Source: a virus
Lineage: Duplodnaviria > Caudoviricetes
IMG/VR virus record: IMGVR_UViG_3300032295_000393
Coordinates: 1-51,779 of that record
DNA length: 51,779 nt
Reading direction: 5' to 3' (one strand)
The translations under genes and the position numbers were made by a program. This document shows positions 29,801 to 50,840 of this stretch, one piece after another. A model generated the notes under the pieces. It made no database searches and was not told the origin of the DNA. It worked only from the letters and a program-made list of their open reading frames with translations. Every line of letters starts with the position of its first letter. Position 1 is the first letter of the stretch.

Positions 29801-32800
29801 TTTATTGAGCGTGGTCACTGGTCTACCATAGAGTCAGAGAAGGTGCAAAAAGCTCTCAAGAAGCTTGGTCACGATGGCTTCTTTGTGCTTGAAGGCGGCA
29901 GAAAGAATCTTGCCGTCTACGATCCCGCACAAGTCAAATCTGCCACTGGCAACATTGGCACATATGACATCAACAATCCTGATATTCGCTTCAGCTTGCG
30001 TGACAAGAATCTTCAAGAATTTGTCAAGCCAAGCCAAGAGAAGGGTGTTTGGTATCACGGCAGTGCCAATGACATTACTGAGTTCAAGCCAAAACAGGCA
30101 AACTCAATATTCTTGACTCAAGACCCTGACTTTGCCTCAACGTATACACAGTATTCGCAGGAAAGGAATATACGCAAGCTTGGCGAAATGATTGACGGAA
30201 CCAGCGAAAAGCTCCCATTAATTACAAGGCTTGTAGATGAAGCAATTGCAGACAAGAGGCTTCTCACAAATAAAAATTCAGATGGGTTTGTCGATACCAC
30301 AAGGGAGCAACACATTGAAACCTTTATGGGTCGCCCTTTGTCAAAGTCGGCTCAGTCTATTGGCATTGGCAATGAGCTTACAGAATTGCTTGCGGATCGA
30401 TTGGATGTTGGCAAAAACGTCATGCCTGTTTACGTCAGGGTTACCAATCCGTTTGATTATGACAATCCAAAGCACATCAGCAAAGTTGTAAAGCAGGCAT
30501 CAGGTGAATTGTCAAAAGACGATATAACTTGGCTCAAGCGTGGCGAATGGAGCACCGTTGAGTCTGGCCCAATTCAAGATGCCATCAGGTCGATGGGATT
30601 TGATGGCTACTATGTAAGAGAGCATGGGCGCAAAAACCTTGCTGTTTACAACTCAAACCAAATCAAGTCCGCAACAGGAAACATTGGCGCATACGATGTA
30701 GCCAATCCTGACATTCGCTTTGCGCTGAACGTACCACCCAAGCAACTCACCGCACAGACACCTGTTTACACGGCGGGACAACAAGTGCAACAAGCGGCCT
30801 CTGCGGCTCATCAAGTCTTCACCACAGACCCCAATGAGTTTTGGACAAAGCTCCGCATCAACTGGGTTGACCCCAATGCTGGCTTGACCAAGCGTTTGCA
30901 AAACCTGCCAATCTTTGATACCAAGGGTCAGCTCCGTGCTGATATGTTGAACCGTGCAAGAGCGCAATCAATCAACCTGATCAAGAATGGATTGACAGGC
31001 GGCGTACCTGTACTTAACAACGATGGCTCCATCATCATCAAGAACGATGCAGTCAACAACTTGGCAAACAGCCAACTGCTGGCGGACGGTTTAAACAGCA
31101 ACTACTATGTACGGGAGTCCGGCCTTGACGGTCGTGGCTACGTTGCCGAAGTTGCTCGTGCCTTGCGTGGCGAAGAGATCATGCAGGAGGATGCGGCGCA
31201 CAACGCTGTAAACCCACCATCAAAGCATTTAAACAGAGAGAAGCAAGTTGATGCGGCTCAGATTGCATGGGCAAAGCAACAGATGCAGAACGTCCCTGAA
31301 CTTGCAGACATATTCTCAATTTGGAAGAATGTAAACACCTCGCTGGTTGACCTTTGGGAAAAGGTTGGCTTGCTGGATGCCAAGACCGCCAGCGAATACC
31401 GTGGCAAGAAGTCATATGTGTCCCTTGCCGCTTCAATTGCAGACATGGAAGAGCGCATGGGCGAGGGCTTTGGTCACGCCTACACAGGAACAAAGGGCGT
31501 TAAGAAAATCCAACGACTGGAAGGCTCTGACCTCTTCCGCAACATTTGGGAGAACGTGAGTAAGCAGTACGCCTCAATGGTGGCTGGCGCTTATCAGAAC
31601 CAAACCCGCAAAGTTGCTGTAGATCAATTGAGCGGCCTTGGATTGGCAAGAATCACCAACCCAACAGACCCCGATATTAACTTGCGGTACAAAGATCAGA
31701 ACAACCCACAAGCAGACAAGGAAGGCATTGTCTCTGTGGTTGTGGATAACCCCAATGACGTAGCCGCATTTGAATCAATGCACTACCAACTCAGCCCCAT
31801 CATGAAGGCAATGTCAGGCGCAACAGGCGTTCTCCGTGCTGGCGCTTTGCTGAACCCAATGTTTTGGATTCGTCAGTTGATTCGTGACCCCATCCAAGCC
31901 GCACTGACCAACAGCCCTGTGGTGACTCCTTTGCACTCAGCCAAGGAATACATCAACATTCTCAGAAGAGATTCGGCAGAGGCTCGCTTGCTTGCCGAGC
32001 GTGGTGTCATTGGCCCTGTTGACTCAACGCTGGATTTGCAGGACTTCTTGGAAACTGCTGGTCAGGAGTTTTCCAAGAGGGGCGGTACTTCTGCCATGCT
32101 GGGCAAACTCATGGAGATGCACGAAGCATCCGATGCGGCAACCCGTGTGGCAATCTACAAGAAGGCATTGAGCGAGGCCCTAGCTCGTGGTTTAAACACT
32201 GTTGATGCCACCAACGAAGCTGTGTACAAGGCTCGTGAGTCCATCAACTTTGCAGTTCGTGGCAACTCCCCAACCCTTGCCGCCCTGCGCCACATGACTC
32301 CATTCTTGTCTGCCGCAATCTCCAGCTTGGATGTTTTGTATAAAGCCGCCACCGGCTACGGCCTACCACCCAGAGAACGAGCAGAGGCTCGTGCAATGTT
32401 TAAACGCAGAGCATTGATGATGGGCGCTATGAGCATCGCCTACGCCATGATGATGCAAGATGATGAGGAATATCAGAAGGTTCCTGACTACATCCGTGAC
32501 AACAACTGGCTGATCCACAACCCATTTGGCGAGGGATTCATCAAAATCCCAACCCCATTCGAGGTTGGCTTCCTGATGAAAACAATTCCAGAGGCTATGG
32601 TTCGCTACATCAGTGGCAACAGCACGGGCCAGCAGGTTATCAAATCGTATTTAAACGGCCTTGGCAATTCACTTCCCGGGGATGCTGTTCCATTGCCTCA
32701 GTTGATTAAGCCAGCCGTTGAGGCCATCACCAACTTCTCGCTGTTTACATACACTCCAATCGAGAGCATTGGCGAGTCCAAGCTTCCTGTTGAGATGCGT

Positions 32801-33358
32801 GGACGCAAGGCTTCCGAAACCGCAAAAGCCTTAAGTCAGGCTGGACTTGGCGAGATTGGTCTTTCGCCAGCCAAGATTGATCATCTGATCCAAGGCTACC
32901 TTGCGGAGTGGGGGAGCTTCTCGACCTTCTTGTTTGACAAGGCGGTCACTGAATCCAAGGGCGAAACCCCAATGGATAAGAATCTTGCACAGCAACCATT
33001 CTTCAAGTCATTCATTACCGACCCCACAAGGGATAAGGTGGTTGGCGACTTCTATGAGTTGTACAGAACCGCAAATCAAGTTTCTGCGGCTGTCAAAGAG
33101 TACAAGTCTATAGGCGAGTACAGCGCAATTGAGGACATCTACGCTGACGAGGACAAGGTCAAGTTACTTCAAGCCGCCCCCGCCTTGAACCGTATTGCTG
33201 ACAACATGGGCAAGATCAACAGCCAAATCAGGTTGATACAGAAAAGCCAGAGTATTCCTTCAGATGAGCGTTTAAAGCTTGTAACCGAGCTTGAAGGTCA
33301 GCTTGCACGAGTGGCTCGCCAGCACCTCCAGCTATCAAAAGCTCTAGGGATTCAATAA
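23876..33358 (+). CDS. Giant polyvalent internal virion protein (3160 aa)
   Basis: Contains an HETVH zincin motif, an HhH-glycosylase-like segment, RAVHDYYAH, two tandem ADP-ribosyltransferase-like domains (YHGT/YHGS) and an LPD38-like C-terminus (IRDNNW...KIPTPFEVG). Confidence 0.8.
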   Translation: MPIFKVQAPDGSVMEIEAPEGASDQAILQFAAQTYKTPPPSVRDTGFTGAAKASIEQIQADAYKTAGKLGILPIKEAEAESAKHEARSKEIFQPTEKDFLEPTGQKFRELLGGSLPYIAAPVAAAGVGMLAVPSAPILAPAIAAGLAGTAQYTGSNLARQMEADKKGLEETNLGYAVAGAVPQALLDTYSLGMTPLIRRMFASAGIQLAEKEAVDIAKRGLMSTLKDYGGVTAKTATREGLTEAAQQSIERLQAGLNITDAEARKEYFDSFIGGAVLGGTLAPVGRYLEGPARPSDQGIRPLTDQTNPLTDQANTLTDQSIAPTGVAPETFKQSAVDAGLAQGQQLYQEKAPLTSTTPIGGAIDTSVPLGRELSSTQAEIEALGKQNATLLAPEAATVQPTVAPEESAALALKLSDGLKQNPALRTQFEAAKQEFDTQGRLDLSQVFQTVLDTVPPVLTTPVIAPEVQQKVQEVRKTLIPALKKYGLEGTGLQIMDSLGNGQADGYYAENLITVALDSDNHLGAMRHETVHALKNLNAFTPQEWRVLTNKAKSDWIPQFISPERQQLYRDQYAEGNNGDMTGFDEYLQEEGIAEAFKHFNNKLPAGMVGNLMYRLRQFFQSLKNTFSGQGFNTSDSIFRGIEATKYKPQAPAIAEGKFAKREPASKAPEGIPQSIWDLHEKVRRADAESMGEIAREKGLSRGAMKRNQTMAFKRLNKAVNDFVGEEKSLDLMVQMNQESGRREAQQESGRFSFVRKATKGEKEISTQNATGVKAKFDPLEDIYSIDEKAVLEAMEINPAIKARTIEAIKDYGFIPKDTADDQVIPLFKKNIVNNLLFLYNSVPAEIRNRSKLWYDGANKIAKQMGKEYSLTDMQVSGILAAMSPQKDWFQNVSMAERAIDILSKRGDMAWDANMLKYAQSYVKNTKDRKEQEKRGLAYKKIEKVAKAGTKLNDMDIESAAAFVRAYDEAFHSRSYRIVTPEGGFSGLVMNMPDKKGDIKESTLMWSTYDPIEKSVSIYRNGSRDNISQQLGFEHKIRSFYNNIVAPNSDISHVTIDTHAVAAGLFEALAGSDLAVAQNFGATGTADNIGVGGTYGLIADAYRDAAKQVGMKAREMQSITWEAVRGLFDENMKSSMKAPIRGQWTKYKNGDQTFEQAREKIIKIAGGMQDPQWVGSDAGQTIAEGASSYDKSFQPEGGVRLRKEEDIREKITVNLSNVTSSIPGLNELYNRSMSGDEKAYAVLQDTAKAHLEHLLSGTSAKVNIEPVMGAYGSEREPAINAALSFPEADRKEVMAAVARFATNFNQQQVHVRQATAYPFGHDFGDGSYATNVWKMGINRQLTNDELAEIIKETGIPAITVAGKEKDGKTQWTATTYFVDPFENTEKAYEEYIQQVKSLDKALARVVGRSDKAVKPSVERLYVYGDGYGARLGYESIAGDVRPKQASDTRSPKLVAEYFKGESVEGFKQKGLSKDEIAAQKSLAQVFEALPTNDLKRPIVRRAYTALANELKEQYKVLPIKVEVVTDVMMDGKSYNYFNKDGVKELRDDLTRGMTEAEADSAIKYLQDNYGQPDSAWKKKGGLLSRVEADNKDVYTSSSAVRRDVSENNKLRVYKTSPETFGPKGASFKSHPLLKDSGLKDANGYPMLYNDLLRAVHDYYAHNITATEFGPKGELAAARNHLAVTKDPMAKWALIAETRLQNAWQNFTKGVEAIPLKDRPFATQKAALPPIEYALSGDPLTDVPVRKLMEELTPEQSLGSLPPSAPIAKKYKFSLREPMSTLGYPASRIKAPDTPAFKQWFGNSKIVDAKGNPLVLYHGTARDITAFKPKQAGAIFLTADPTFAEDFGDASEAYMIKELFNGATPQERNKYIMDGANVARKNGDISAKEFAEIKSDFSKMDVTFGLIPSAIEQEVTYVLKNQLPTRQNILPLFASVKNPFNFADKQQVDALNAELNQPEYNRFLKEGDEKYGDKNRGFIERGHWSTIESEKVQKALKKLGHDGFFVLEGGRKNLAVYDPAQVKSATGNIGTYDINNPDIRFSLRDKNLQEFVKPSQEKGVWYHGSANDITEFKPKQANSIFLTQDPDFASTYTQYSQERNIRKLGEMIDGTSEKLPLITRLVDEAIADKRLLTNKNSDGFVDTTREQHIETFMGRPLSKSAQSIGIGNELTELLADRLDVGKNVMPVYVRVTNPFDYDNPKHISKVVKQASGELSKDDITWLKRGEWSTVESGPIQDAIRSMGFDGYYVREHGRKNLAVYNSNQIKSATGNIGAYDVANPDIRFALNVPPKQLTAQTPVYTAGQQVQQAASAAHQVFTTDPNEFWTKLRINWVDPNAGLTKRLQNLPIFDTKGQLRADMLNRARAQSINLIKNGLTGGVPVLNNDGSIIIKNDAVNNLANSQLLADGLNSNYYVRESGLDGRGYVAEVARALRGEEIMQEDAAHNAVNPPSKHLNREKQVDAAQIAWAKQQMQNVPELADIFSIWKNVNTSLVDLWEKVGLLDAKTASEYRGKKSYVSLAASIADMEERMGEGFGHAYTGTKGVKKIQRLEGSDLFRNIWENVSKQYASMVAGAYQNQTRKVAVDQLSGLGLARITNPTDPDINLRYKDQNNPQADKEGIVSVVVDNPNDVAAFESMHYQLSPIMKAMSGATGVLRAGALLNPMFWIRQLIRDPIQAALTNSPVVTPLHSAKEYINILRRDSAEARLLAERGVIGPVDSTLDLQDFLETAGQEFSKRGGTSAMLGKLMEMHEASDAATRVAIYKKALSEALARGLNTVDATNEAVYKARESINFAVRGNSPTLAALRHMTPFLSAAISSLDVLYKAATGYGLPPRERAEARAMFKRRALMMGAMSIAYAMMMQDDEEYQKVPDYIRDNNWLIHNPFGEGFIKIPTPFEVGFLMKTIPEAMVRYISGNSTGQQVIKSYLNGLGNSLPGDAVPLPQLIKPAVEAITNFSLFTYTPIESIGESKLPVEMRGRKASETAKALSQAGLGEIGLSPAKIDHLIQGYLAEWGSFSTFLFDKAVTESKGETPMDKNLAQQPFFKSFITDPTRDKVVGDFYELYRTANQVSAAVKEYKSIGEYSAIEDIYADEDKVKLLQAAPALNRIADNMGKINSQIRLIQKSQSIPSDERLKLVTELEGQLARVARQHLQLSKALGIQ

Positions 33359-39199: not shown

Positions 39200-39511
39200 T
39201 CAGAAAGGGATGTCATCGTCTTGCTCCTGATGCTGAGGTTGAACATTATTTGTTTTGGGCGATTGCTCTTGTTCGGGCGTGTAGTTGTTGAGCTTTAAAG
39301 ACAGGTAGCTTTTGCCTGACTTGTCAACAGACTTCCATCCTGAGATTCGGAATTCAACTTCGTTGTTGACGATCTTGACGGAGTTCAAATTAAGTTTAAA
39401 CGAGCCAAAGTAATCAGGCGACTCTGCTCTCTTCTTTACCTCTGTCTTGCGTAGTGAGCCTGTGTCAGGCTTTACTTCGTATGGCTTGTCGTACTTGGGG
39501 GTGTTATACAT
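39200..39511 (-). CDS. Single-stranded DNA-binding protein (DUF736-like)
   Basis: Start MYNT with GGAG RBS; PDYFG...SGW...KSYLSL; acidic tail DDDIPF. Confidence 0.75.
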   Translation of the reverse strand: MYNTPKYDKPYEVKPDTGSLRKTEVKKRAESPDYFGSFKLNLNSVKIVNNEVEFRISGWKSVDKSGKSYLSLKLNNYTPEQEQSPKTNNVQPQHQEQDDDIPF

Positions 39512-40235
39512 CTGTGGCTCCAATGCTTTCTGAAAGTTGCTTTTTGATTTCTGCAAATGCTTTTTGCAGTCCTTTGAACAGACTGGGTTCTTCGTCCTTG
39601 ATCTGATCGATTCGCCCTTGGTTTTGTTTCCACAGCTTGGCGAGGTCTGTGAGTGTTGTGCTTGCCTGAGCAAGCTCAATCAAACCCTCAACAAAGAGTT
39701 TTGATTCGGTGTGACCAACAATTGGCTTCTTACTGGGAACTGGCTGGATTACCTCGCCTGTCGGCTGACCCTGTGGTGAGCCTGTCACGCTCTCAAGCGC
39801 ATCATGCTCAACGATAGCCATCGCCGTGACATACAGGTATCTCCGCTGGTAGGTTTCAACAGCACCGAGGTTCTGAATGGGGTGACATCCTTTCAACTGA
39901 GCGTCAGCCATAGGCGATGTAAACGTCACGCACGATCCATCGATCACATCGTAGATGGTCATGGTTGCCATGTCGGGCGTGAAGCTGATGACATCAACCA
40001 AGCCCCACTTGTTGAAAGCCACTTGGATCGCTGGCAAAAAGTCCCCAAGCTCAAAGTAGCTGTAGCCAGCAAACTTGTTGTGACCCGACTTCTTGATCGG
40101 CATTGTTTGAAACTCTGCACGAGCGGCGATGAGTCGGGCAAGCACCCCACGCTTACCACTCATGCCCATCAACACCAACTGGTCTGAATGACTCACGCTT
40201 GGATCAAACGCCATCGCTTCATTTTCATTCGTCAT
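39504..40235 (-). CDS. erf: ERF-family ssDNA annealing protein
   Basis: KSGHNKFAGYSYFEL...QNLGAVETYQRRY...EHD. Confidence 0.85.
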   Translation of the reverse strand: MTNENEAMAFDPSVSHSDQLVLMGMSGKRGVLARLIAARAEFQTMPIKKSGHNKFAGYSYFELGDFLPAIQVAFNKWGLVDVISFTPDMATMTIYDVIDGSCVTFTSPMADAQLKGCHPIQNLGAVETYQRRYLYVTAMAIVEHDALESVTGSPQGQPTGEVIQPVPSKKPIVGHTESKLFVEGLIELAQASTTLTDLAKLWKQNQGRIDQIKDEEPSLFKGLQKAFAEIKKQLSESIGATDV

Positions 40236-41118
40236 TTTGTTGCTCCTTCAAATAGGATTGATACTGTGAACACCACTTGCTGACACCGCAATAATCTTGC
40301 GTACAGCGCACAGGTTCGGCTTTGCGGATTTCTATGAACCCTTTGTCCTTTGCTGGAATCGTTGCCAGCAAGTCGTTTGCTTCGTTCATCGTGTCAAAAA
40401 CACGAACAGCAGTCTTGCGTCCTTCTTTCTTGACTGCAAATTTGGGGTCACGCATCCAGCGATCCTCGTCAGTGCATGGGGGCAACTCATCACCCCAGTC
40501 TGCGCTGACCTTTGAATCACGGTGCATCTCGACACGCCTTTCGATAAAGCTCTCTGTGAAGCTCTTGTCCCAAATCGGAATGTCAACCACTTGAATGGGC
40601 GCTTGTGGGTATGTGTCTTTCCTGTCAGCCTCACGCCGTGACCAATCACGAACGATGGCAATGATCTTCAAGCCCTTGACCTTCTTGCCCTTGGCTTTCT
40701 CCACGATGTAGCCGTAGATGTTTTGTTGCTCTGCCCACTCAGGCTTCTCGTTCATCAGCGCCCACGCAGAGGTGAACTTGTAGTCCATGATGATGATGCC
40801 GTCCTCGTCAATCTGCTGGACATCGACTGCACCTGACAAGCGAACGCCATTCACATCAATGGTGAGTCGCTCTTCGTTCGTATAGTTGTCGATGACCGAA
40901 CGCTCCATGACAACGTGCAGAGCGGAGCCAACGATTGACCACCACATATCGGTGACATCCGTTTCCATTTCGTCATCATGTTTTTTGCGTAGCCGCTGAA
41001 TGCGGGGCGGTGAAATTATTTCGGTGACTGAGTAGTCAGCCGCACCCTTGCTGTAATACTGTTTGTTCGCAAGAGCGTATAGTGGTTCGGGTAAACCAAA
41101 CTTGTTCGTCACTTTCAT
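40225..41118 (-). CDS. PD-(D/E)xK exonuclease (RecB/Cas4-like)
   Basis: GSALH...LSGAVD...DYKFT...QQNIY; C-terminal Cys cluster (C...RC..YC.VS.WC). Confidence 0.85.
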   Translation of the reverse strand: MKVTNKFGLPEPLYALANKQYYSKGAADYSVTEIISPPRIQRLRKKHDDEMETDVTDMWWSIVGSALHVVMERSVIDNYTNEERLTIDVNGVRLSGAVDVQQIDEDGIIIMDYKFTSAWALMNEKPEWAEQQNIYGYIVEKAKGKKVKGLKIIAIVRDWSRREADRKDTYPQAPIQVVDIPIWDKSFTESFIERRVEMHRDSKVSADWGDELPPCTDEDRWMRDPKFAVKKEGRKTAVRVFDTMNEANDLLATIPAKDKGFIEIRKAEPVRCTQDYCGVSKWCSQYQSYLKEQQNDE

Positions 41119-41151
41119 GGAGCCTCCTTGATTGATAAAATGCGAACGCTT

Positions 41152-41180
41152 ATGCTAACACGAGAAAATTAACCATGCAA
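41152..41180 (-). promoter_or_regulatory. Sigma70-like promoter of the recombination operon
   Basis: Minus strand TTGCAT-17 bp-TAGCAT with extended -10 TG. The -35 overlaps the rusA start codon. It has the same -10 as the 50370 promoter. Confidence 0.6.
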
Positions 41181-41543
41181 ACACTTTCGTTAAAAATTTT
41201 TGGTGAGCCAGCAAGTAAAGCCAACAGTCGCAGGGCGGTGATGGTCAACGGCAAATCAATGTTCATCAAATCCGCAAAGGCGTTGGGCTATGCCAAGATG
41301 TTTAAACAACAAGCTGTTGTGCCGCCTTTGTTGAAATTTCTTTCGGAGGATGTCGCTGTTGTGATTCGCATTTGGTATGCATCAAGGCGACCTGATTTGG
41401 ATGAGTCGCTGATCCTCGACCTGTTGCAGGATGTTGCTTACCTCAACGATAGACAAGTCAAAGAGAAGCACATCTACTGGATGGGTGTAGACAAAGAGAA
41501 CCCTCGTTGCGAGATTGAGGTCAGCCCCATACAGACAAAATAA
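41175..41543 (+). CDS. rusA: RusA-like Holliday junction resolvase
   Basis: GEPASKANSRR, RRPDLD, D..Q...Y.NDRQV and NPRCEI. Confidence 0.8.
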   Translation: MQTLSLKIFGEPASKANSRRAVMVNGKSMFIKSAKALGYAKMFKQQAVVPPLLKFLSEDVAVVIRIWYASRRPDLDESLILDLLQDVAYLNDRQVKEKHIYWMGVDKENPRCEIEVSPIQTK

Positions 41544-41614
41544 AAGCCACCTCAAGGGTGGCTTCTACCGATCTTTCGATCTGCTATACAGGAGGCTTAA
41601 TCATGTCTAGGTGC
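41537..41614 (-). ncRNA. Candidate small RNA B (about 75 nt) with anti-RBS loop UGAUUAAGCCUCC
   Basis: Own promoter (41619-41646) and own terminator (AAGCCACC/GGTGGCTT plus TTTTATTTT on the minus strand). The loop is complementary to GGAGGCTT RBSs elsewhere in the genome. Confidence 0.7.
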
Positions 41615-41618
41615 GTGA

Positions 41619-41646
41619 ATTGTAGCCCCGCTATCACTCGTGTCAA
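41619..41646 (-). promoter_or_regulatory. Near-consensus sigma70 promoter for sRNA B
   Basis: Minus strand TTGACA-16 bp-TACAAT. Confidence 0.75.
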
Positions 41647-41681
41647 CACTCGTTCGCAAAATATTTTGGGATAATGCGATT

Positions 41682-41758
41682 GCAGTTGCCGTTTGTTTTT
41701 TCAATGCTTTCTGAACGGCAATCTTTGAGAGATGTTTAAACGCATCTCTCTTTTTTTT
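41682..41758 (+). ncRNA. Candidate small RNA A (about 77 nt)
   Basis: Extended -10 TGgGATAAT (41667-41675). Stem GTTGCCGTT/AACGGCAAT with a 20-nt U-rich loop, then terminator GAGAGATG/CATCTCTC plus T8. Confidence 0.65.
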
Positions 41759-41885
41759 GTCTGGAGTTTCTGGCGTTTGCCGGGAAAACTGCTCCGGGGT
41801 TGATTTGCAATTGTTTAAACAGCGCACAAAAATATTTTGCGCTTACCCCATTGTGTCGCCCCTGTTTCGTGGATTAAGATTCACT

Positions 41886-42096
41886 CCTCTTTTGATCGTT
41901 GGGAGAAATCGACAGCAGGGTCAAGAGGTTTATTGTCGGTACTGTTGGAAGTGCATTAGATACCGAAGGGGGTGGCGAAGACAGAGCCCCTTGCACGAGA
42001 AGTCTGTCGGGGCGCATCATGCGTGAAGGCTCATCTAGGATAGGCTAGGTGCGCCTTGCGCTCCCCCAAGGGGGGCGCAAAGAGTTGATATCAACT
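41886..42096 (+). other. Highly structured non-coding segment upstream of HNH/primase (ncRNA leader or replication origin)
   Basis: Promoter-like TTGTGT-18-TAAGAT at 41851-41880, at least five hairpins, a possible pseudoknot and the 14-bp palindrome AGTTGATATCAACT. Confidence 0.5.
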
Positions 42097-42118
42097 ACAT
42101 ACAAATTGGAAATCTCAT

Positions 42119-42394
42119 ATGCCTTATGTGAACAAAGCAAGACCTTACAAAAAAGAATATGAGCAACAGCTTGGGCGTAGTGAACAACCAAAGCGCAATG
42201 CGAGAGAACGTGCAAGGTATGAGATGGACAAGAATGGTGTTGACCGCAAGGGTAAAGACATCGACCATGTAGTGCCACTATCCAAGGGAGGAACCAACGC
42301 ACCATCAAACTTGAAATTAAAAACACCATCAAAGAATCGATCATTCACACGCAACAGTGACCACACTGTCAAAGTGAACAGACCGAAAAAGTAA
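42119..42394 (+). CDS. Small HNH endonuclease
   Basis: GKDIDHVVPLSKGGTNAPSNL...NRS. Confidence 0.8.
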   Translation: MPYVNKARPYKKEYEQQLGRSEQPKRNARERARYEMDKNGVDRKGKDIDHVVPLSKGGTNAPSNLKLKTPSKNRSFTRNSDHTVKVNRPKK

Positions 42395-42409
42395 ATCATC
42401 AGGAGGCTT

Positions 42410-44131
42410 ATGAAATTTGCAGGATCATCTGCAATGAGTGGCATCGACCATCTCGTTGCGTCAATTGCGGCACACAAACCCGAACGTGCCGTCTGTCCCG
42501 AATGCTCTGACGAGCGTTCAAAAAAAGGCGATAAAGATTTAGCCATTCACCCGAAAGAGCGTGGATGGACTTACCACTGCCATCACTGCCACATCGGCGG
42601 TTTCGTCTTCTTCCCATCAAATCAAATTCAACCGCCCAAGCGTCAGGAGCAAAACGTGATTCCACTCAGAGCCTTTCAACAAACACAACTTGAACCACAG
42701 CACTTTGCATTTTTGAAAGCACGAGGGATATCAGAACAGACCGCCCTTGACATGAAGTTGTTTGCCGCAAATAAATATTTCAATCGAATCCAAAAACAAA
42801 CTGATGCAATCGGTTTTCCTTATTTCAAAAATGGTCAGTACATCAATGCGAAGTATCGAAGTATTGAATCGAAGGACTTTACGCAAGACACAGGAGGCGC
42901 TCATGTATTCTTTGCAATTGACAAGGTTGATCCAACCAAGCCGATGATCATCGTGGAGGGCGAAATAGATGCACTGACATTGATTGAATGCGGCATTGAG
43001 AATGTTGTCAGCGTCCCTGCTGGCGCTCCCATCAAAGTCAGCGATGGCAAGGTTGCACCAAGCGAGGATAAAAAATTCAGTTTTATTTGGGATGCATTTG
43101 AAACAATTGAAAAGCTCCCCTACGTTGTCATTGCAGTTGATACCGACACTGCTGGTCAAGCCCTTGCAGAAGAGTTGGCAAGACGCATAGGCAAAGACAA
43201 ATGCCGCATCGCCAAATCAGAGTTCAAAGATTTAAACGAGGCTTTCCTTGCAGAAGGGGCGACCAAGGTTAAAGAAATTATTGATGCCGCAGAGCCGTAC
43301 CCAGTTGCTGGCTTGTCGTCCGCCACAAAATTTGAAGACCGTTTAAACGATCTGTGGAGCAAAGGCACGGGCAAGGGTGTATCGACCGGCTACTCAAACG
43401 TGGATCAGATTTACACCGTGGCTGAAGGTCAACTCACCATCGTGACAGGCTACCCATCCAGCGGCAAATCAAATTTCGTTGATCAACTTATGGTCAACCT
43501 CGGGCGATCCAATGATTGGAAGTTCGCCCTTTGTTCATTTGAGAACGCACCCGAAGTTCACATCTCCCGCCTGATGGAGATTTACAAAGAGAAGCGATTC
43601 TTTGAAGGCACAAATCGGATGACAGACGATGACCGCAAAGATGCCTTTGATTGGGTGCAACAGCATTTTTTATTCTTGGACTCAGAGGGCGTTGAACCAG
43701 CGTCAATTGATTCGATATTGGATCGGGCAAGGATTGCAGTTGTTCGCATGGGCATACGAGGGCTGGTGGTTGACCCCTACAACTACATTGAAAATAAATC
43801 AGGCATGGCAGAGACAGAGTTCATATCGTCCATGCTGACCCGCATACAAGCGTTCGCAAAGGCTTATGGAGTCCATGTGTGGTTCGTGGCTCACCCAGCC
43901 AAAATAACTCGCTCAGGCATGGATTTACCTCGTCCTGACGGCATGGCTATCAGTGGATCAATGGCGTGGTGGGCAAAGGCTGATTGCGGCATGACCGTGC
44001 ATAGAACCAAGACCAACGATGTTGAGATTGCGATTTGGAAATGTAGGTATCGGTGGGTTGGAACGCAAGGCGAAACCCAGTTGAATTATGAAAAGGTCAC
44101 CGGAACGTACAAAGTGGCTGATGACTTCTAA
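42410..44131 (+). CDS. Primase-helicase (T7 gp4/Twinkle-like)
   Basis: Zn finger CPEC...CHHC, TOPRIM EGEIDAL and DTD, Walker A GYPSSGKS, VVDPYN, VAHP and ISGS. Confidence 0.92.
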   Translation: MKFAGSSAMSGIDHLVASIAAHKPERAVCPECSDERSKKGDKDLAIHPKERGWTYHCHHCHIGGFVFFPSNQIQPPKRQEQNVIPLRAFQQTQLEPQHFAFLKARGISEQTALDMKLFAANKYFNRIQKQTDAIGFPYFKNGQYINAKYRSIESKDFTQDTGGAHVFFAIDKVDPTKPMIIVEGEIDALTLIECGIENVVSVPAGAPIKVSDGKVAPSEDKKFSFIWDAFETIEKLPYVVIAVDTDTAGQALAEELARRIGKDKCRIAKSEFKDLNEAFLAEGATKVKEIIDAAEPYPVAGLSSATKFEDRLNDLWSKGTGKGVSTGYSNVDQIYTVAEGQLTIVTGYPSSGKSNFVDQLMVNLGRSNDWKFALCSFENAPEVHISRLMEIYKEKRFFEGTNRMTDDDRKDAFDWVQQHFLFLDSEGVEPASIDSILDRARIAVVRMGIRGLVVDPYNYIENKSGMAETEFISSMLTRIQAFAKAYGVHVWFVAHPAKITRSGMDLPRPDGMAISGSMAWWAKADCGMTVHRTKTNDVEIAIWKCRYRWVGTQGETQLNYEKVTGTYKVADDF

Positions 44132-44160
44132 AGCGTTTAAACGCTGAGTGTTTTCAGGGC

Positions 44161-44199
44161 AAAAAAAATCCCCCCGAAGCCGTGGAGCTAAGGGGGGAA
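44161..44199 (-). terminator. Intrinsic terminator of the early operon
   Basis: Minus strand TCCCCCC...GGGGGA hairpin followed by T8; converges on the primase gene end. Confidence 0.75.
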
Positions 44200-44210
44200 C
44201 TGGTCAGAAT

Positions 44211-44456
44211 TTAGTGAATGGGTGAATCCTCGTCAGGCATCTCGCTTGCGTACTTCACGGTGATGCTGGTGACAACAGCTTTCAAAATGTTCGTGAGGTC
44301 TACGCCCGACTCGAATGCGGTATCCGCAAGCAGGGACGCAAGCATAGGCAAGATGACCTTTATCTCGTGACCCTCAAGAACATCGCAGACTTTGTCTCTG
44401 AGTTCTATGTAGGTGTCGAAGTGCTTTTCAATTTCTTCTTGGGTTAATTCACTCAT
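44211..44456 (-). CDS. Hypothetical acidic protein
   Basis: AAGGA RBS; clean ORF. Confidence 0.65.
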   Translation of the reverse strand: MSELTQEEIEKHFDTYIELRDKVCDVLEGHEIKVILPMLASLLADTAFESGVDLTNILKAVVTSITVKYASEMPDEDSPIH

Positions 44457-44471
44457 GATGTTTTCCTTTGT

Positions 44472-44666
44472 TTAGTTTTGCTTGTTGAAGTAATCGCCTA
44501 GTGGACGGCTAAATTTTTGTGGGTTGCGACCCATCTGCATACCAAGACCGAAGACGGCATCCTCTCTATTTTTTGCGGTGAATCCAAGACCCAGCCTGCC
44601 GATCTCATCACGATATTCTGCCCTCCACATTTTCAGTGTCTGTATGTATTCGACTTTGATTCCCAT
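44472..44666 (-). CDS. Hypothetical protein
   Basis: AAGGAAAG RBS. Confidence 0.65.
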   Translation of the reverse strand: MGIKVEYIQTLKMWRAEYRDEIGRLGLGFTAKNREDAVFGLGMQMGRNPQKFSRPLGDYFNKQN

Positions 44667-44709
44667 GATGCTTTCCTTTTTAAAAGATGGGGAGCAGGCT
44701 CCCCTTGGT

Positions 44710-45516
44710 TTACTTCAATACTTTCAGAACCTTGTTGAGCGATGCGCTGGTGAGGTCTTGAATGTTGGTCACGTTCTCTGCGTGTGTAAAGCACTCGGCA
44801 ACCTCGGTGTGTCCAATGCCAATTGCAATCAACGTGATGCCTTGCTTGTCAGCAAGCTTTTGCAGGTACTGCATATGCGGCTGGTTGTAGCCATTCGCAT
44901 CAGTCAGCAAGAACAAAACTTTGCGTGGCTCTTTGCGTATAGCCAAGTCCTCAATTGCAAGAGCGATGGACGAGTAGTCAGGCGTGGAGCCCTGAGCGCA
45001 TTGAGCGATAGCGCCAAGCTTTGCAGATGCCTTGCCCAGTGATTCACCCCACTTCTTGAATGGGATGAAGATAGGCTTCTCGACTCGCACTGCTATGTCT
45101 CGTGATGCACCTGTTGCATTCTGCACCTGTGCATCATCGCCGCCGTAAAAACCTGTCACCGAAAACTCAGCGTTGGCCTTGTCGAATATCTTGCATAGCT
45201 GAACAGCAACCTGACCAGCAAGGGCGATCTCGCCGCCATAGGTCATTGAGCCCGAGCAGTCGATCATGATGCTGACCGCTGACCGCTCTGCCTCACGCAC
45301 CTGACGCTTGCTGAAGATGTTTGCATCACCACAGGCGTAGCGTGTAAACGCTTTGCGATCAACCCTGCCCGACTCCTCGTGTGTAGACCAGCTAACCAAA
45401 TCATTCGAGCGCAAGATGCGAAGCAAGTTGGCTCGTGTTGCACCCATGCCTGATGGCGTGAGCGTGTAGTTGTTTTTGTATGTCTTCTCTGCTCTGTCTT
45501 TGTCAACGTGTCTCAT
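44710..45516 (-). CDS. vWA (MIDAS) domain protein, CobT C-terminal-like
   Basis: SGRVD, IMIDCSGSM (DxSxS), GSTP, LLTDA and IAIGIG. Confidence 0.85.
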   Translation of the reverse strand: MRHVDKDRAEKTYKNNYTLTPSGMGATRANLLRILRSNDLVSWSTHEESGRVDRKAFTRYACGDANIFSKRQVREAERSAVSIMIDCSGSMTYGGEIALAGQVAVQLCKIFDKANAEFSVTGFYGGDDAQVQNATGASRDIAVRVEKPIFIPFKKWGESLGKASAKLGAIAQCAQGSTPDYSSIALAIEDLAIRKEPRKVLFLLTDANGYNQPHMQYLQKLADKQGITLIAIGIGHTEVAECFTHAENVTNIQDLTSASLNKVLKVLK

Positions 45517-45525
45517 GTTTACCCC

Positions 45526-46647
45526 TTAATAAAAAGCTATCTCTTCAACCTTTGGTCTTGCAACAGCAGGACGATGACCCTTGGCATCGACCTTTGACTT
45601 GTGCTGACCAAGCTCGTTCTGAATGAACTTGTCAAACTCAGGACGGCGGCGCTTGTCGGTGAATGGATCGTTGCTGTACCCATTGCCGCCCTTGTCGCTT
45701 GGCTTGCCTGACTCACCGGCTTGATCACCCTGTTCACCCTCGCCATCACCCTGCTCAGGCTTGTCAGAACCGTCACCAGCGCCCTGATCTGCGCCGTCTG
45801 ACCCCTTACCCTCACCGTCAGCTTTATCGCCTTGCTGATCGCCTTGGTCACCAGCCTGATCACCCTGCTGGTCGCCGCCCTGATCCCCTGCTTGGTCGCC
45901 CTGCTGGTCATCACCTTGCTCGCCTTGCTGACCGTCATCACCCTGCTGACCGCCGTCATCTTGCGGCTCTTGCGGAGGTTGCTTCTTCTGCTCCTCGTGG
46001 GCTTGCTGAAGACGTTTAAACAACTCGACTGCAATGTCTGCAATGGTGGTTGTGTTCTTTGCTTTCTGTGCGCTGGTCAATGCCCACTCAATGTCGGCTG
46101 ACCAAGGCGACACGCCAAGCACTGTCGGGTGACTGATGGGGTAACCGTTCAAGCGCCGCCCCTCAATGGCGAGCATGAATGGCACGTTCTTCAGATCGTC
46201 AGGCTTGACGTAACCGTTCTTGTCCAGCACTGCATTGGTCAACTCTTCAAACAATGCCTTGCTGTTGGGCGCATAGCCTGAGTGAATGACGCACTGCTCA
46301 ATGCGTGGGTCTTCAAGACCGTTGATCAATGAGCCAACGTATGAGCCATGCTTCTCACGAGCGTTGTCCCAAGGTGCGTTGTCGGTGAACCATGCATGAC
46401 CAAGCTCGTGCAAGGCGTAGCCAACGGTGTTGTTGAATACCTTGCGAGAGATGGTTGCCATGTCATCGATGGATGGGAAGATCAACTTCACGCTTTGCAA
46501 TGTCTTTGCACTGGAGCGTCTGAAGATGATCCCCGCTGTCTTGCCTGACCACAGAATGTCGAGCTTGTCGATCTTCTGTCCGCTTGCTTGGAAGACACGC
46601 TCAAGCGTTGATGCAACGCCTCGTTTAACGTCTGTACCTAAAAACAT
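45526..46647 (-). CDS. CobT N-terminal-like protein with HExxH motif and Q/G/D-rich tail
   Basis: GYALHELGHAWFT...NGLEDPRIE; low-complexity acidic linker. Confidence 0.75.
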   Translation of the reverse strand: MFLGTDVKRGVASTLERVFQASGQKIDKLDILWSGKTAGIIFRRSSAKTLQSVKLIFPSIDDMATISRKVFNNTVGYALHELGHAWFTDNAPWDNAREKHGSYVGSLINGLEDPRIEQCVIHSGYAPNSKALFEELTNAVLDKNGYVKPDDLKNVPFMLAIEGRRLNGYPISHPTVLGVSPWSADIEWALTSAQKAKNTTTIADIAVELFKRLQQAHEEQKKQPPQEPQDDGGQQGDDGQQGEQGDDQQGDQAGDQGGDQQGDQAGDQGDQQGDKADGEGKGSDGADQGAGDGSDKPEQGDGEGEQGDQAGESGKPSDKGGNGYSNDPFTDKRRRPEFDKFIQNELGQHKSKVDAKGHRPAVARPKVEEIAFY

Positions 46648-46656
46648 AAAGCCCCC

Positions 46657-48162
46657 TTACTTGGCTAAGAATTTTTTGAATTCCACGGTGTCAACCGTGG
46701 CGGTGAAGATGCCTACCAACTCAGCCTCGCAGTCAGCGGGAAACTTGTTGACGATGGCAGAGCGAAACGCTGTCACCGTTGGGATGCCCTTGGTCACTGC
46801 TCTTGCCCACGCAAACAACTGTCGCAATGATGGAGGCTGAGTCAGTACACCAGCCCTTGCTTTCTCACGAGCCACGTTGGCGAAGCGCACGAGAACGTCA
46901 GCGGCATCGATGTTTAAACCTGTCCGCTTGTTGATGAGTGCAACCTCGTCATCATGTGGCAGGTACTCGAACTCCAGCGTGTAGCTGAAGCGATCAATGA
47001 ACGCACTGTTCTGATCACGAACACCAGCGAAGTTGCCGGACTGGTCACCGTGACCGTTGCTGTTGTCAGCGCAGAAGAATGCAACGTGCGATGCAACAGG
47101 GATGCGAGTGCCTGTCTCGGCGATCACGATGGCACGGTTGGCAGAGCGTTCGCACAAGGCGTGGAGAGCGGCGAGGTTCTGCGCTCTTGCGAATCCGATC
47201 TCGTCCAACAGCACGAGCGAACCAGTGTGCTGGATGGCTTGGGCAATGATCCCTGCTTTCCATTCGACTGAACCGTTCTTGACGATGTTGCCGCCGATGA
47301 ATTCGCTACGCTCCATCGCCTCATCAAAGTTGATGCGGAACAGTTTGCGCTTGAGCCTTGCGCTCAGTTGTTCGCAGAATGCAGTCTTGCCTGTACCACG
47401 CTCACCAGCAAGCCACACGTTGTCGGGCAGTGCATCGCTCAATGCACACAAAGCTTGGTGCAGGTTGGCGGGGTTGAAGACGTAGTCATCGACAACAGCG
47501 CAAGCCTCTGCATCATTCCAAACCAGCACCTCCAAGTCCTCGAAGTTGACAACCTCGCCGTCCTGCTCGTACCACAGGGGAGCGGGGAACACCTCCGATG
47601 CCTTGCGTGTCTCGAACACTGCCACGCTGTTGGCAATGACCTGTAGTTGGTCAGGTGTGACCGTCTTCTTCAGAGCCTTGAACAGGTTGCCCACTTCAGA
47701 GTGGATGGCGTTGTCGATCTTGCCGTAGTCCACGCCTGTGATCTTGCTGACCTCAGTGTCGAGACGTTTAAACAGGTCACGCTCAATGCTGTCAGCTTTC
47801 GAGATGACTGCACCTCTCAGTTGGCGAACCTCGTCCAGCGCCTTTGATGCAAGCGTGTTGGTTGACGAGACGATGGCTTGCGTGTTGCGAACCTCGGTGA
47901 TTGCATCGTTGACCAATGCGACTGAAGAGTCAGCCACTGGTGTAGTGGACTGCTTGGCGTTGATCACTGCTGTTGACAGTGGCACGAGGTCACGAATCTC
48001 GCCAATGCTGATGCCGCCCCTGTTGACGATGTCGGTCAGGATGCTGACCACACGCACCTTGTCGGCGCTGACCTCGGAGCCGTAGCCGGTCTGCACGAGA
48101 GCGGCGTTGAGTTTGCCTGTCTGAATGAGTGACAGAGCCTGAGAAATTTTTGCTGTTGACAT
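46657..48162 (-). CDS. MoxR/CobS-like AAA+ ATPase
   Basis: Walker A GERGTGKT, Walker B LLDEI, ADNSNG and NSAFIDRF, sensor SLRQ. Confidence 0.9.
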   Translation of the reverse strand: MSTAKISQALSLIQTGKLNAALVQTGYGSEVSADKVRVVSILTDIVNRGGISIGEIRDLVPLSTAVINAKQSTTPVADSSVALVNDAITEVRNTQAIVSSTNTLASKALDEVRQLRGAVISKADSIERDLFKRLDTEVSKITGVDYGKIDNAIHSEVGNLFKALKKTVTPDQLQVIANSVAVFETRKASEVFPAPLWYEQDGEVVNFEDLEVLVWNDAEACAVVDDYVFNPANLHQALCALSDALPDNVWLAGERGTGKTAFCEQLSARLKRKLFRINFDEAMERSEFIGGNIVKNGSVEWKAGIIAQAIQHTGSLVLLDEIGFARAQNLAALHALCERSANRAIVIAETGTRIPVASHVAFFCADNSNGHGDQSGNFAGVRDQNSAFIDRFSYTLEFEYLPHDDEVALINKRTGLNIDAADVLVRFANVAREKARAGVLTQPPSLRQLFAWARAVTKGIPTVTAFRSAIVNKFPADCEAELVGIFTATVDTVEFKKFLAK

Positions 48163-48180
48163 GATAGGAAGCCTCCTGAT

Positions 48181-48771
48181 TTAAACGAGTTGAAATTGAG
48201 TGACGTTGTCACTGTCTGACTTGCCATGCGAACACCAAGGCAAGCCTGTTGATGACCACTTGGAGGTGAGTCGAACCTTGTAGCCGCACGTTGGACACTG
48301 AGCCAACAACATACGAGTTGATTGCACCTTGCGAACAGCAGAGATGTTCAGCTTGGCGTGTGGGTAGTCGCCCAGTGATTGAATCAATGGAGCGAAGTTG
48401 TCTCTGAATGCATCACCAGCGACAGTTGCAGTGACCTTGCCTTCAAGCCACAAGGCACGAACGCAAGGCACGAAACGTCCACGGTGACCATCGCCATCAG
48501 TCGCCGCATGGGACAACTCGTGGCAGAGAATTGCGAACGCTTCAACAGCGTCATCAACCACAGGGCTGATGCAGATTTCATGGTGACCATCGCTTGATGC
48601 GGCTGGTGACCAATGCTCACCGATGGCACGGTGTTGCGAGCGAGCCTTGCTCGATGGGAAACCACAGGTCACCCTGATCTTGTCAGGCAGGGGGAAGCCG
48701 TTGGCATTGAAGATGGAGCGAAGCTCCTCGACAGCGTGGGCAAGCCACTCTTCACGGTTGGTAGCAGTCAT
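48181..48771 (-). CDS. SprT-like zinc metalloprotease with C-terminal zinc ribbon
   Basis: REEWL...LCHELSHAA...GH...F; CPTCGY...PWC. Confidence 0.75.
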   Translation of the reverse strand: MTATNREEWLAHAVEELRSIFNANGFPLPDKIRVTCGFPSSKARSQHRAIGEHWSPAASSDGHHEICISPVVDDAVEAFAILCHELSHAATDGDGHRGRFVPCVRALWLEGKVTATVAGDAFRDNFAPLIQSLGDYPHAKLNISAVRKVQSTRMLLAQCPTCGYKVRLTSKWSSTGLPWCSHGKSDSDNVTQFQLV

Positions 48772-48773
48772 GT

Positions 48774-48929
48774 TTAAACCTCCTTGTGATTGAGAGCCTC
48801 AGTCACAACGTGACCAAGGAAGAAACCGCCTGCGGCGATAACGAAATTCCACAGCGGTATGCCATCGCTGTAGCTGAAGCCGATAAAAAGAAAAGCCGCT
48901 GATGCGAGCGAGACGAGAACGTAATACAT
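48774..48929 (-). CDS. Small two-TM protein
   Basis: GGAGGCTT RBS, start MYYVL; hydrophobic. Confidence 0.65.
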   Translation of the reverse strand: MYYVLVSLASAAFLFIGFSYSDGIPLWNFVIAAGGFFLGHVVTEALNHKEV

Positions 48930-48990
48930 GGATAAGCCTCCATAAGTTGAACAAGACCGCCTCACGGCGGTTTCGGCTAATCAAGCCTCA

Positions 48991-49236
48991 TCAGTTGTCC
49001 TGTGCGTTTGCGATCTGTTCATCAGTCAAGCCTGCGAACACTGGTAGCTCCCGAATGGGCTTGGTGCGGTCTTCAAGGCCACGCTCTGTATAGGGGTTGG
49101 ACAAGGCGGCAAGTTGTTCGCATCGGCATCCGAACCCATCGATAGCGGGGCAGTCAGGATGGTGCGACTCTTCTGTCATCACGATGGTGTCGCCCCCTTG
49201 GATCGTGTTGATGGTGACGTTGGTGAATGTGTTCAT
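48991..49236 (-). CDS. Hypothetical protein (HxxxC...CxC)
   Basis: GAGAGG RBS; HHPDCPAIDGFGCRC. Confidence 0.6.
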   Translation of the reverse strand: MNTFTNVTINTIQGGDTIVMTEESHHPDCPAIDGFGCRCEQLAALSNPYTERGLEDRTKPIRELPVFAGLTDEQIANAQDN

Positions 49237-49238
49237 GT

Positions 49239-49376
49239 TTAAACCTCTCTATGTGTACCGTTGATGATGGTTTGTGCGTAGGCAATGCAAGCCAACGCAA
49301 TGTCTTTGTCGCCCTGTGCGAGCGCCTTGTACGCCTCTGCAAGCGCCTCTGTCAGTAGCTCTAAATCCTGTTTCAT
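49239..49376 (-). CDS. Small helical hypothetical protein
   Basis: AAGGA RBS, start MKQDL. Confidence 0.6.
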   Translation of the reverse strand: MKQDLELLTEALAEAYKALAQGDKDIALACIAYAQTIINGTHREV

Positions 49377-49386
49377 GCGTGTCCTT

Positions 49387-49728
49387 TCAGATGCCAAGGG
49401 GAAGCTCGTTGTTCGCAAGCTTGTACTTGATCGACTCACCAGCATCAACGCCGATGGCAATCAAACGATTCTGAGCAAGCTCAAACGCCTTGCTCATGGT
49501 GTATGCAACCTCAATGTCGGTTACATCAGCGTTCGTGCCGCCACTTGACCAGTGCAGGGTCACTTTCGGCAATGCACCGAAGCTGTAGCGTTCGATGACG
49601 TAGCAAATGCCCTCTGAGCCCCAATGCGTGGGAGCAGAAAAGGTGTAGAAGATTTCACCGAGCGGTTTGCCGCCGTTATTGCGAACGGTGTTGTTGATTG
49701 TTTCTGTCACGTTGAATTTGCGGAACAT
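49387..49728 (-). CDS. Hypothetical early protein
   Basis: GGAGGCTTAACC-ATG, start MFRKF. Confidence 0.65.
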   Translation of the reverse strand: MFRKFNVTETINNTVRNNGGKPLGEIFYTFSAPTHWGSEGICYVIERYSFGALPKVTLHWSSGGTNADVTDIEVAYTMSKAFELAQNRLIAIGVDAGESIKYKLANNELPLGI

Positions 49729-49791
49729 GGTTAAGCCTCCATTGAAGTGCGACATTGCACTGATATGCCCATCGGGCATACCGCTGAAATG

Positions 49792-49995
49792 TCAGCCTCT
49801 GATTTGGTAAACATCAGAGCCGGAAGAGGTGACGCATTCACCTATTTCGAGCATCCACTCGAATGTGTTACGCACGAATGCGTTTTTGATCTCGTCAAGC
49901 GAGTTGTACTCAGTCACAGAGCTATCTGTGCGAGTGGCTGAAGTGTTCGCACTATTGCGAACCCAATCACCAGTGTGGTGATGAACGAATTGCAT
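49792..49995 (-). CDS. Hypothetical early protein (first gene of operon)
   Basis: GGAGGCTCA-ATG, start MQFVHH. Confidence 0.6.
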   Translation of the reverse strand: MQFVHHHTGDWVRNSANTSATRTDSSVTEYNSLDEIKNAFVRNTFEWMLEIGECVTSSGSDVYQIRG

Positions 49996-50363
49996 TGAGC
50001 CTCCAGTTGTTTGATGCGGATTGCATCCACAAGCACACTGCGAACAATGCACTTGAAGTGGAATCCACTTGCCGCCCTTATTCACGAGGGCGTGGCATGG
50101 GGACAGTGCCTTGCGTCCGCTCCTCTCAGAGCGGTCAGATCGTTCGCTGTTGCCCCCAATGTGTGTAGGTGGTGGGCATGGTGAGAACGGTCAACGTAGG
50201 TGACTGTCGTAGTCATCAGGGCTGTTGCTCTCTGTCTGTCCCCTGTGTGTGTAGGTGGGTGACACGTTGAGAGCCTGTACCTGACGGGCTTTCTGCTCGG
50301 GCTAGAGTGTTTGCGAGTCACTCATCGAAGCCGTCTTTGTCGTTTGATGCAAGCACCAAACTG
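49996..50363 (-). ncRNA. Long structured 5' leader of early operon with duplicated stem-loop domain
   Basis: Two hairpins present the identical 13-mer CCACCTACACACA; further stems; no convincing ORF. Confidence 0.5.
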
Positions 50364-50369
50364 AAGCGA

Positions 50370-50397
50370 ATGCTAGCACGTTTACACACTTCTGCAA
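50370..50397 (-). promoter_or_regulatory. Sigma70-like early promoter
   Basis: Minus strand TTGCAG-16 bp-TAGCAT with extended -10 TG; GTGTAAAC in the spacer. Confidence 0.55.
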
Positions 50398-50440
50398 CAG
50401 GTTGCGAACAAAAAAACCACGTTTTCTGCAAATCGTTATA

Positions 50441-50453
50441 AATCAATGGGTTA
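50441..50453 (+). promoter_or_regulatory. IHF consensus site
   Basis: AATCAATGGGTTA matches WATCAANNNNTTR, with an A-tract upstream; about 45 bp from the early promoter -35. Confidence 0.5.
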
Positions 50454-50840
50454 CGAGCGTTTCGACCCGCTCCAGCCTACCAAAATGAACTTTGGTATTA
50501 ATTGTGGGGCTGACGGCAATGAATACTTGAGTTTTCAATGCGAACGATTGGGGCGAGGGACAAGGCGAAGCCGAATGGACTGATGCTTGATAGGCAGTGA
50601 CTGCTGTAGGGAAGAGAGGCGATGAGGTGAAGAGCATGAGCTTGTGGTGAGCTTGTGCTGAGGAGTGTTTAAACGCAAACCGTTGGCTTGCTGGTGATCA
50701 CCATCTTACTGGTGTACGCCGAGCTTGCAGTTGTGAGGTGCATCGATGCGTTATGCGAACGAGTTGCGTTGTGTGTGTCGTGCTGAGAAAATGATGAGAA
50801 CAATTGCAGAGTGTTTAAACCAAGCGAAAGGGATCACAAC

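Follow-up and report, generated by a model that had tools for sequence, protein, structure and literature searches.

A predicted small RNA gene with a conserved scaffold and a variable loop behind rusA in an uncultured tailed phage

Introduction

This study focused on a short intergenic unit in the genome of an uncultured tailed virus, and on whether it encodes a small RNA and, if so, which mRNAs such an RNA might address. The DNA analysed, referred to here as the window, is the whole stretch of 51,779 nt, a 51.8-kb linear virus record that is 84% complete. A preliminary description of it had proposed a small RNA (sRNA A) that perfectly matches 14 nt beside the ribosome-binding site of the gene for the single-strand DNA-binding protein (ssb), and that forms, together with a divergent neighbor (sRNA B), a cassette tuning the replication and recombination genes. 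As far as the available accounts go, few phage sRNAs have a known function, and the tested examples come from temperate phages of enterobacteria and Vibrio.

Results

Genomic setting

The sRNA A unit lies inside a 575-nt gap between rusA, a resolvase gene (41175-41543, plus strand; PF05866) that is by synteny the constant upstream neighbor of the unit, and an HNH gene that is followed by the primase-helicase gene (42410-44131). The PD-(D/E)XK, erf, and likely ssb genes are all on the minus strand and point away from the gap. The ERF-family recombinase gene, erf, occupies 39504-40235 (PF04404, E 8.5e-10). The next gene, 39200-39511, specifies a protein of 103 aa and is likely to be ssb. The protein matches phrog_18154 weakly in PHROG (E 3.6e-4) and ends in an acidic tail, the two features on which the label is based; a Pfam search of it gave no match.

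The gap also holds, on the plus strand (41851-42012), a Betaproteobacteria-1 RNA (RF02932, 41888-42012; 78.4 bits, E 2.3e-14) with its own promoter-like site at 41851-41880. Of 12 related loci tested, 11 carry this RNA ahead of HNH and primase-helicase, and a promoter-like site (18-nt spacing) was found 6-9 nt upstream of it in all 12. One RNA run (X1), available as contigs only, covers 41951-42144, including the 3' half of the Betaproteobacteria-1 RNA, and 42356-42530; neither contig lies on the sRNA A unit. Since related phage contigs are contained in two betaproteobacterial MAGs, a link that is itself weak, and an RNA of the Betaproteobacteria-1 family is present in the gap, we infer a betaproteobacterial host.

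Two other regions of the window were noted in passing. A unit of three genes (44710-48162, minus strand) encodes a CbbQ-like AAA ATPase, a partner of 373 aa whose linker is rich in Q, G, and D, and a VWA protein resembling CobT, and a 3160-aa protein (23876-33358, plus strand) has PHROG matches that are all of unknown function.

Parts and predicted fold of the sRNA A unit

The extended -10 element reported in the preliminary description, TGgGATAAT, is present at 41667-41675 on the plus strand, without a -35 box, and a TGn plus xATAAT arrangement recurs in five of six close lineages. The 5' end of the predicted RNA, about 78 nt long (41681-41758), was placed from this box. Near its start is a GCAGUUGCC element (41682-41690), found in a looser, GCAGUUGYC-like form in 26 of 48 distinct units. 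The hairpin described previously was recovered at 41685-41722, with a stem of 10 bp (41685-41694 with 41713-41722) and an open, pyrimidine-rich loop of 18 nt (41695-41712) that is predicted to be mostly unpaired. The loop includes a UGCUUUC core (41705-41711), and the stretch complementary to the ssb leader, seen in the window genome only, runs from the loop into the stem (41702-41715). A CUUU run and an intrinsic terminator hairpin (41727-41750) with a T8 tail complete the unit (41723-41758). The fold of 41681-41758 had a z-score of -4.6, and none of 200 shuffles was as stable. The terminator with its T8 tail, already part of the preliminary description, was picked up by a terminator scan, while the promoter was missed by a promoter scan that requires a -35 box. 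Rfam 15 covariance models gave no match on 41657-41758 at E values up to 5, and the Rfam search of 12 related loci found RF02932 downstream in 11 and no other family.

The motif GTTTAAAC, around which the preliminary description saw this terminator built, has 39 copies in the window, about 23-fold above the Markov-3 expectation, and is hence no special mark of it. In each of 19 related contigs longer than 30 kb the motif has 9-47 copies, often at gene junctions and in terminator loops; a literature search on it found nothing. As a mark of the family the motif was rejected; a scan anchored on it yielded 115 hits that were mainly due to chance, 14 of them followed up by a T run.

Conservation among relatives

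Searches with rusA showed this gene order to be shared by 80 viral and 80 metagenome loci, 149 of them with at least 330 nt behind rusA and 110 of these distinct. A fixed rule called a plus-strand terminator behind rusA in 77 of the 110 distinct loci and in none of 90 control stretches situated 1.2 kb downstream. It left 33 loci without a terminator and overlooks some that are visible, as in locus L011. Promoters and seeds were counted in 49 units hand-picked by eye (48 distinct), and a -10-like box preceded the end of the U tail by 48-88 nt, mostly with TGn or a TTGACA-like -35; these units are mutually related and a loose score served to pick the best promoter, which makes the counts not independent. 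Many distant units have a TTGACA-like -35 at a spacing of 16-18. The promoter-like site of A is retained at four loci where sRNA B is absent (G007, L241, L253, L256). A TT directly precedes the terminator stem in 47 of 48 distinct units, a count that partly depends on how the stem was drawn, and this U-rich stretch together with the U tail gives the unit the layout of an Hfq-type sRNA.

The covariation check proposed in the preliminary description was run on six close lineages. Both helices are kept, with 99% of cells paired (97.9% in the 5' hairpin, 100% in the terminator hairpin) and one double-sided change in each, two in all; 13 of 500 shuffles scored as high, in a control that takes no account of relatedness. 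Short ORFs on either strand of the unit were not kept among relatives. A 21-aa plus-strand ORF over the -10 box was discarded (ATG in three of six lineages, with frame shifts), as was a 76-aa minus-strand ORF that is broken in relatives. The best reading of unit A is a stand-alone small RNA gene, because the promoter-like and terminator elements are conserved, the helices covary, and no ORF is conserved; at the level of sequence, it has what would be expected of a trans-acting sRNA, namely a promoter of its own, an intrinsic terminator, and no conserved ORF.

The scaffold of A is far better preserved than the seed. The closest-looking relative, L001, has lost most of the loop by deletion and kept the stem and terminator. 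Elsewhere, a degenerate viral scan gave 53 hits, seven of them terminator-bearing copies and six of these beside rusA. No second copy of unit A was found in 20 long contigs, annotated phages gave a single 58-nt hit and nothing else, and sequence searches found neither further close relatives nor the ssb leader that is missing for G002, the loop of which differs from that of the window at a few bases. Unit A is thus likely to represent a new phage sRNA family of a known kind, without an Rfam match.

Some loci differ at this position. About 130-400 nt behind rusA, L046, L049, L054, and L066 have a short cysteine-rich-looking ORF in the place of sRNA A, with a GGAGGCU-type or GGGGGG start, and other structured stretches occupy it in L057, L058, L063, and L065; the position behind sRNA B thus resembles a site of cassette exchange. 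Directly downstream of the unit, 41759-41820 and its counterparts in relatives form a highly variable stretch of 50-80 nt that ends at a second GTTTAAAC, and in which repeated CCNGG-type words (CAGCCAGGC, CCCGGG, CCGGCT) are kept in most relatives. It could be an origin, a methylation site, or a decoy site.

The divergent sRNA B

Units A and B are back to back and divergent. The B unit (41539-41646, minus strand) comprises a TTGACA-16-TACAAT promoter, a AAGCCUCC seed (41591-41599), and a terminator. Its seed matches a GGAGGCU class of start sites that accounts for 7 of the 72 starts in the window (40225-41118, 42410, 48162, 48929, 49728, 49995). Among 15 long contigs with a GGAGGCU-type B seed, 13 have 3-10 GGAGGCY starts and two have 0 and 1, while three long contigs without B have 0, 0, and 1. 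Two contigs with a GGGGGCU seed have one GGAGGCY start each, but 4 and 3 GGGGCUU starts. Across the compared genomes, co-change of seed and targets is therefore visible for B and not for A, and its detection for B indicates that the comparison can see co-change where it exists. The seed-start class of B is the stronger finding in this gap, and B, rather than A, is the better candidate for tuning the early and replication genes of the phage itself.

The two units are separable. Among the 110 distinct loci, 64 had both marks, 13 the terminator unit only, and 29 the B seed only, by a rule that misses some terminators. The idea of a two-sRNA cassette acting on replication and recombination thus holds in part: the pair is back to back and ssb is the best partner of A in this genome, but the ssb match is lost in relatives and A and B can occur apart.

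Between the divergent promoters (41640-41666 in the window), an ACGTTC or GTTCGCA word is present in most relatives, often as the palindrome AGAACGTTCT, and is possibly the site of a shared regulator. Counting both strands, 23 of 26 GTTCGCA sites in the window cluster in 41000-51200, the part with the likely early genes, and one is at 41652, between the two promoters.

The match to the ssb leader

The 14-nt perfect match first reported in the preliminary description is exact: CAATGCTTTCTGAA at 41702-41715 is identical to 39521-39534, which on the minus-strand mRNA corresponds to positions -23 to -10 of the ssb ATG at 39511. The site falls inside the final erf codons and takes in the leading G of the GGAG. 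The suggested extension into the ribosome-binding site by G-U pairing also stood, with three additional pairs, two of them G-U, giving 17 contiguous pairs. Eleven of the 14 matched bases are in the loop of the A hairpin and three in its stem. By co-folding, the ssb leader is the best partner of A in its own genome, ranking first of 72 start windows with a net -18.0 kcal/mol. The shorter match noted earlier is likewise present, as the 8-nt ATGCTTTC (44668-44675, minus strand) in the ribosome-binding site of the gene starting at 44666.

The calculation of chance that the preliminary description had called for was carried out with 20,000 shuffles of the 46-nt body. A 14-nt match anywhere in the genome occurred in 3.7% of trials, and an antisense 14-nt match within a start window in 0.07%. 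For comparison, 4.2% of real 46-nt genome tiles have a 14-nt match, and the window genome holds 43 repeat pairs of at least 14 nt, palindromes included. The match is unusual for a start site, but the feature was chosen post hoc because of it.

Loss of the match in relatives

The same complementarity was sought in close lineages, where the UGCUUUC core of the loop is kept in five of six (L001 having lost it by deletion) and its flanks vary. Four of them have a visible ssb leader, to which A matched exactly over at most 7, 6, 7, and 6 nt, and ssb ranked 8/23, 6/67, 8/25, and 4/12 by co-folding gain, against 1/72 in the window. The hairpin is thus kept while the complementarity is lost, a pattern that the preliminary description had itself named as evidence against its proposal, and ssb as a conserved target of the A family was rejected. 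Over a wider set, the 67 of 80 viral loci with a callable ssb leader, best matches to that leader from anywhere in the 430 nt that follow rusA were 6-10 nt long; this count omits 13 loci without a called ssb start, and L017 is incomplete and the start of L019 looks misplaced. It is likely that ssb is not a fixed target of A, the perfect match being real in the window and lost in the relatives checked.

Two possible cases of tracking between seed and site were also rejected. In L001, an apparent co-change amounted to a 7-nt match to its own altered ssb leader, mostly in the stem, with a gain of just -2.7 kcal/mol; L233 shares the ssb leader of L001 yet carries an unchanged seed, and the matched erf-ssb site of the window differs from that of L001 by one base. 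At the position of the 44666 gene, the GGAAAGCA site does not track the seed across relatives: site and seed occur together in the window, G003/G004, and G005, the site without the seed in G001, and the seed without the site in G002 and L233.

Seeds and start sites elsewhere in the family

The words CTCC, TCCT, and CCTC are found in 32 of 48 distinct units, compared with 12 of 48 reverse complements and 3 of 47 stretches of downstream DNA. In distant units these anti-Shine-Dalgarno words (CUCC, UCCU, CCUC) often fall within the hairpin loop; the loop of A in the window has no classic CUCC word. The loop of G005 has a 13-nt exact match to positions -24 to -12 of another gene, in the same register as the match in the window.

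Start tests, with gene starts taken from a simple script, kept 44 of the 49 units; G003, which duplicates G004, was omitted, as were loci that had fewer than eight start windows. The best start-window helix reached a shuffle p of 0.05 or less in six of the 44, the window included. When own starts were set against about 1,500 foreign ones, the own best start beat every foreign start in four of 43 relatives (1.05 expected, P 0.022), while three control sequences gave 1, 0, and 0; one of the four, L295, has a doubtful start call, and without it the count is 3 against 1.05, with P about 0.09. A rank version of the same data gave 4 of 43 at p of 0.05 or less, with a binomial P of 0.17, a KS P of 0.51, and a uniform spread of p-values. 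None of five genomes at least 90% complete matched its own starts in this way (shuffle p 0.56, 0.09, 0.56, 0.28, and 0.50 for G006, G016, G010, G020, and G009). The strong matches in the window and the four relatives involve a different gene each time. The excess of such matches outside ssb is suggestive only. A class of ribosome-binding sites for A, like that of B, was found in none of 21 genomes or loci with at least 40 start windows, the window having at most two own starts; where B is present among these 21, its seed matched 3-10 own starts.

Host targets, which the preliminary description had considered possible, were sought by pattern searches in candidate host groups, the relatives of the two MAGs containing related phage contigs, to which the host link is weak. 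Nothing was seen above control: patterns occurred in 10 of 401 genomes, without any gene start in common, in 4 of 101 genomes, and in 10 and 11 of 61 genomes, largely the same ones and below the reversed control.

Discussion

The comparison of relatives establishes the layout of the unit and the bias of its seed toward anti-Shine-Dalgarno words. The reading that we prefer, and to which we give about an even chance, is that A is a stand-alone RNA of about 78 nt that represses translation by pairing of its loop with Shine-Dalgarno regions, with targets that vary by lineage and likely include host mRNAs. The host sigma-70 polymerase would transcribe the unit into a short RNA, the exposed pyrimidine-rich loop of which is predicted to pair with Shine-Dalgarno regions, perhaps assisted by Hfq through the U run and U tail, as the layout suggests. 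Such pairing would lower translation initiation. Targets would differ between lineages, and host mRNAs are likely to be among them because A has no class of phage ribosome-binding sites, whereas B matches 3-10 own starts. The ssb leader of the window phage would then be one possible target, gained by this lineage or incidental, and not what maintains the family.

The 17 contiguous pairs, the first rank among 72 start windows, and the rarity of such an antisense match in shuffles (0.07%) would fit an RNA that mainly represses ssb in this phage, and weakly the gene at 44666, by covering the edge of the Shine-Dalgarno sequence, other lineages having shifted to other phage genes. The 13-nt match of G005 in the same register, at -24 to -12 of a different gene, points the same way, as does the excess of own starts over foreign ones (four of 43, P 0.022, with controls of 1, 0, and 0). 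Against this, the match is lost in all four close lineages with a visible ssb leader, the rank test is flat (P 0.17, KS P 0.51) and the excess falls to P about 0.09 without L295, none of the five most complete genomes has such a match, and the site doubles as erf coding sequence that differs from that of L001 by one base. On this evidence, a main role in repressing ssb is unlikely. A bolder version, in which A is a re-targetable cassette with a fixed scaffold and a seed that is rewritten quickly, perhaps by copying from gene leaders, while B addresses the GGAGGCU starts, is equally unlikely. If true, the cassette would silence a different gene in each lineage (ssb in the window phage, a small gene of the MPRPK type in G005, and further ones in G023 and L076), and A and B together would be an RNA address system for phage translation.

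Preservation of the scaffold over the seed, with L001 nearly loopless, is also what would be seen if A had no specific mRNA partner and worked, for instance, by tying up Hfq or a different RNA-binding protein, and the 14-mer were due to chance, as the 3.7% of shuffles with a 14-nt match somewhere in the genome would allow. The available account of VpdS, an sRNA of Vibrio phage VP882, reports that it competes with host sRNAs for Hfq (PMC12197685). The anti-Shine-Dalgarno words are, however, enriched over controls and often lie in hairpin loops, and UGCUUUC is kept in five of six close lineages amid changing flanks; we regard action without an mRNA partner as unlikely. It is very doubtful that there is no RNA gene at all and that the terminator insulates primase-helicase from rusA read-through or serves as a 6S-like attenuator, as lambda 6S RNA stops at a terminator overridden by Q (bioRxiv 10.1101/2024.10.31.621285): the unit does point toward the HNH and primase-helicase genes, lacks a -35 box in the window, and has no rule-called terminator at 33 of 110 loci, but most units have a promoter-like site a short fixed distance before the terminator, the second conserved hairpin covaries, and a separate promoter-like site serves the Betaproteobacteria-1 RNA downstream in all 12 loci examined, so that terminator A need not be an attenuator.

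How the preferred reading, a trans-acting repressor with lineage-specific targets, relates to known phage RNAs was considered next to several systems. Lambda OOP and P22 Sar are short phage antisense RNAs with a promoter and terminator of their own that pair with a phage mRNA, and they are encoded opposite their target, so that the pairing is fixed. Unit A differs from them in that its matched site is 2.2 kb away and is not conserved, and no conserved ORF lies on the opposite strand.

The lambdoid prophages of EHEC encode the anti-sRNAs AgvB (EcOnc01) and AsxR (EcOnc02) (PMC4104026), with which A was compared in sequence through Rfam only. As far as that account goes, they resemble A in being short RNAs of phages that occupy a constant place in the genome and come in pairs. 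Their 3' part, with the terminator, is conserved, and the partner is determined by a variable 5' part, a division also found in A. They differ in being 51-60 nt long, in convergent pairs behind PR', and in binding host sRNAs (PMC4104026), whereas A is behind rusA in a divergent pair, has a 5' hairpin, and has seeds that seem complementary to mRNA start regions.

PreS (LPR1) of lambda is a replication-linked phage sRNA of 68-88 nt with a GC-rich hairpin and a U tail (bioRxiv 10.1101/2024.10.31.621285), and VpdS is similar to A as a phage sRNA potentially acting on both phage and host mRNAs (PMC12197685). Both are better characterized in those accounts than A, which is known from sequence alone: Hfq binding was demonstrated for PreS, which has its 3' end at tL2a, the terminator of the operon, and acts mainly on targets in the host, dnaN among them, unlike A with its own promoter-like site; VpdS, from a temperate phage, has been tested as an Hfq binder and is controlled by quorum sensing. 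By this comparison, A is likely to work most like the trans-acting phage sRNAs PreS and VpdS, and to share the design of a fixed 3' and variable 5' part with AgvB and AsxR.

A literature search found no description of the A element, which may be held in the supplements of two catalogues (PMC10690425, PMC5737381). The part of the PMC10690425 supplements available gave no match, and A may be among its 10,006 candidates; the main text of PMC5737381, as far as accessible, does not name the Betaproteobacteria-1 motif.

The finding is of moderate value, the RNA gene being well supported by comparison and the link to ssb restricted to one genome. It indicates that as many as three non-coding RNA units are kept between rusA and primase-helicase across a widespread clade of phages known only from uncultured material, and the fast-changing anti-RBS seed of one of them would offer a natural series on how sRNA seeds gain and lose targets.
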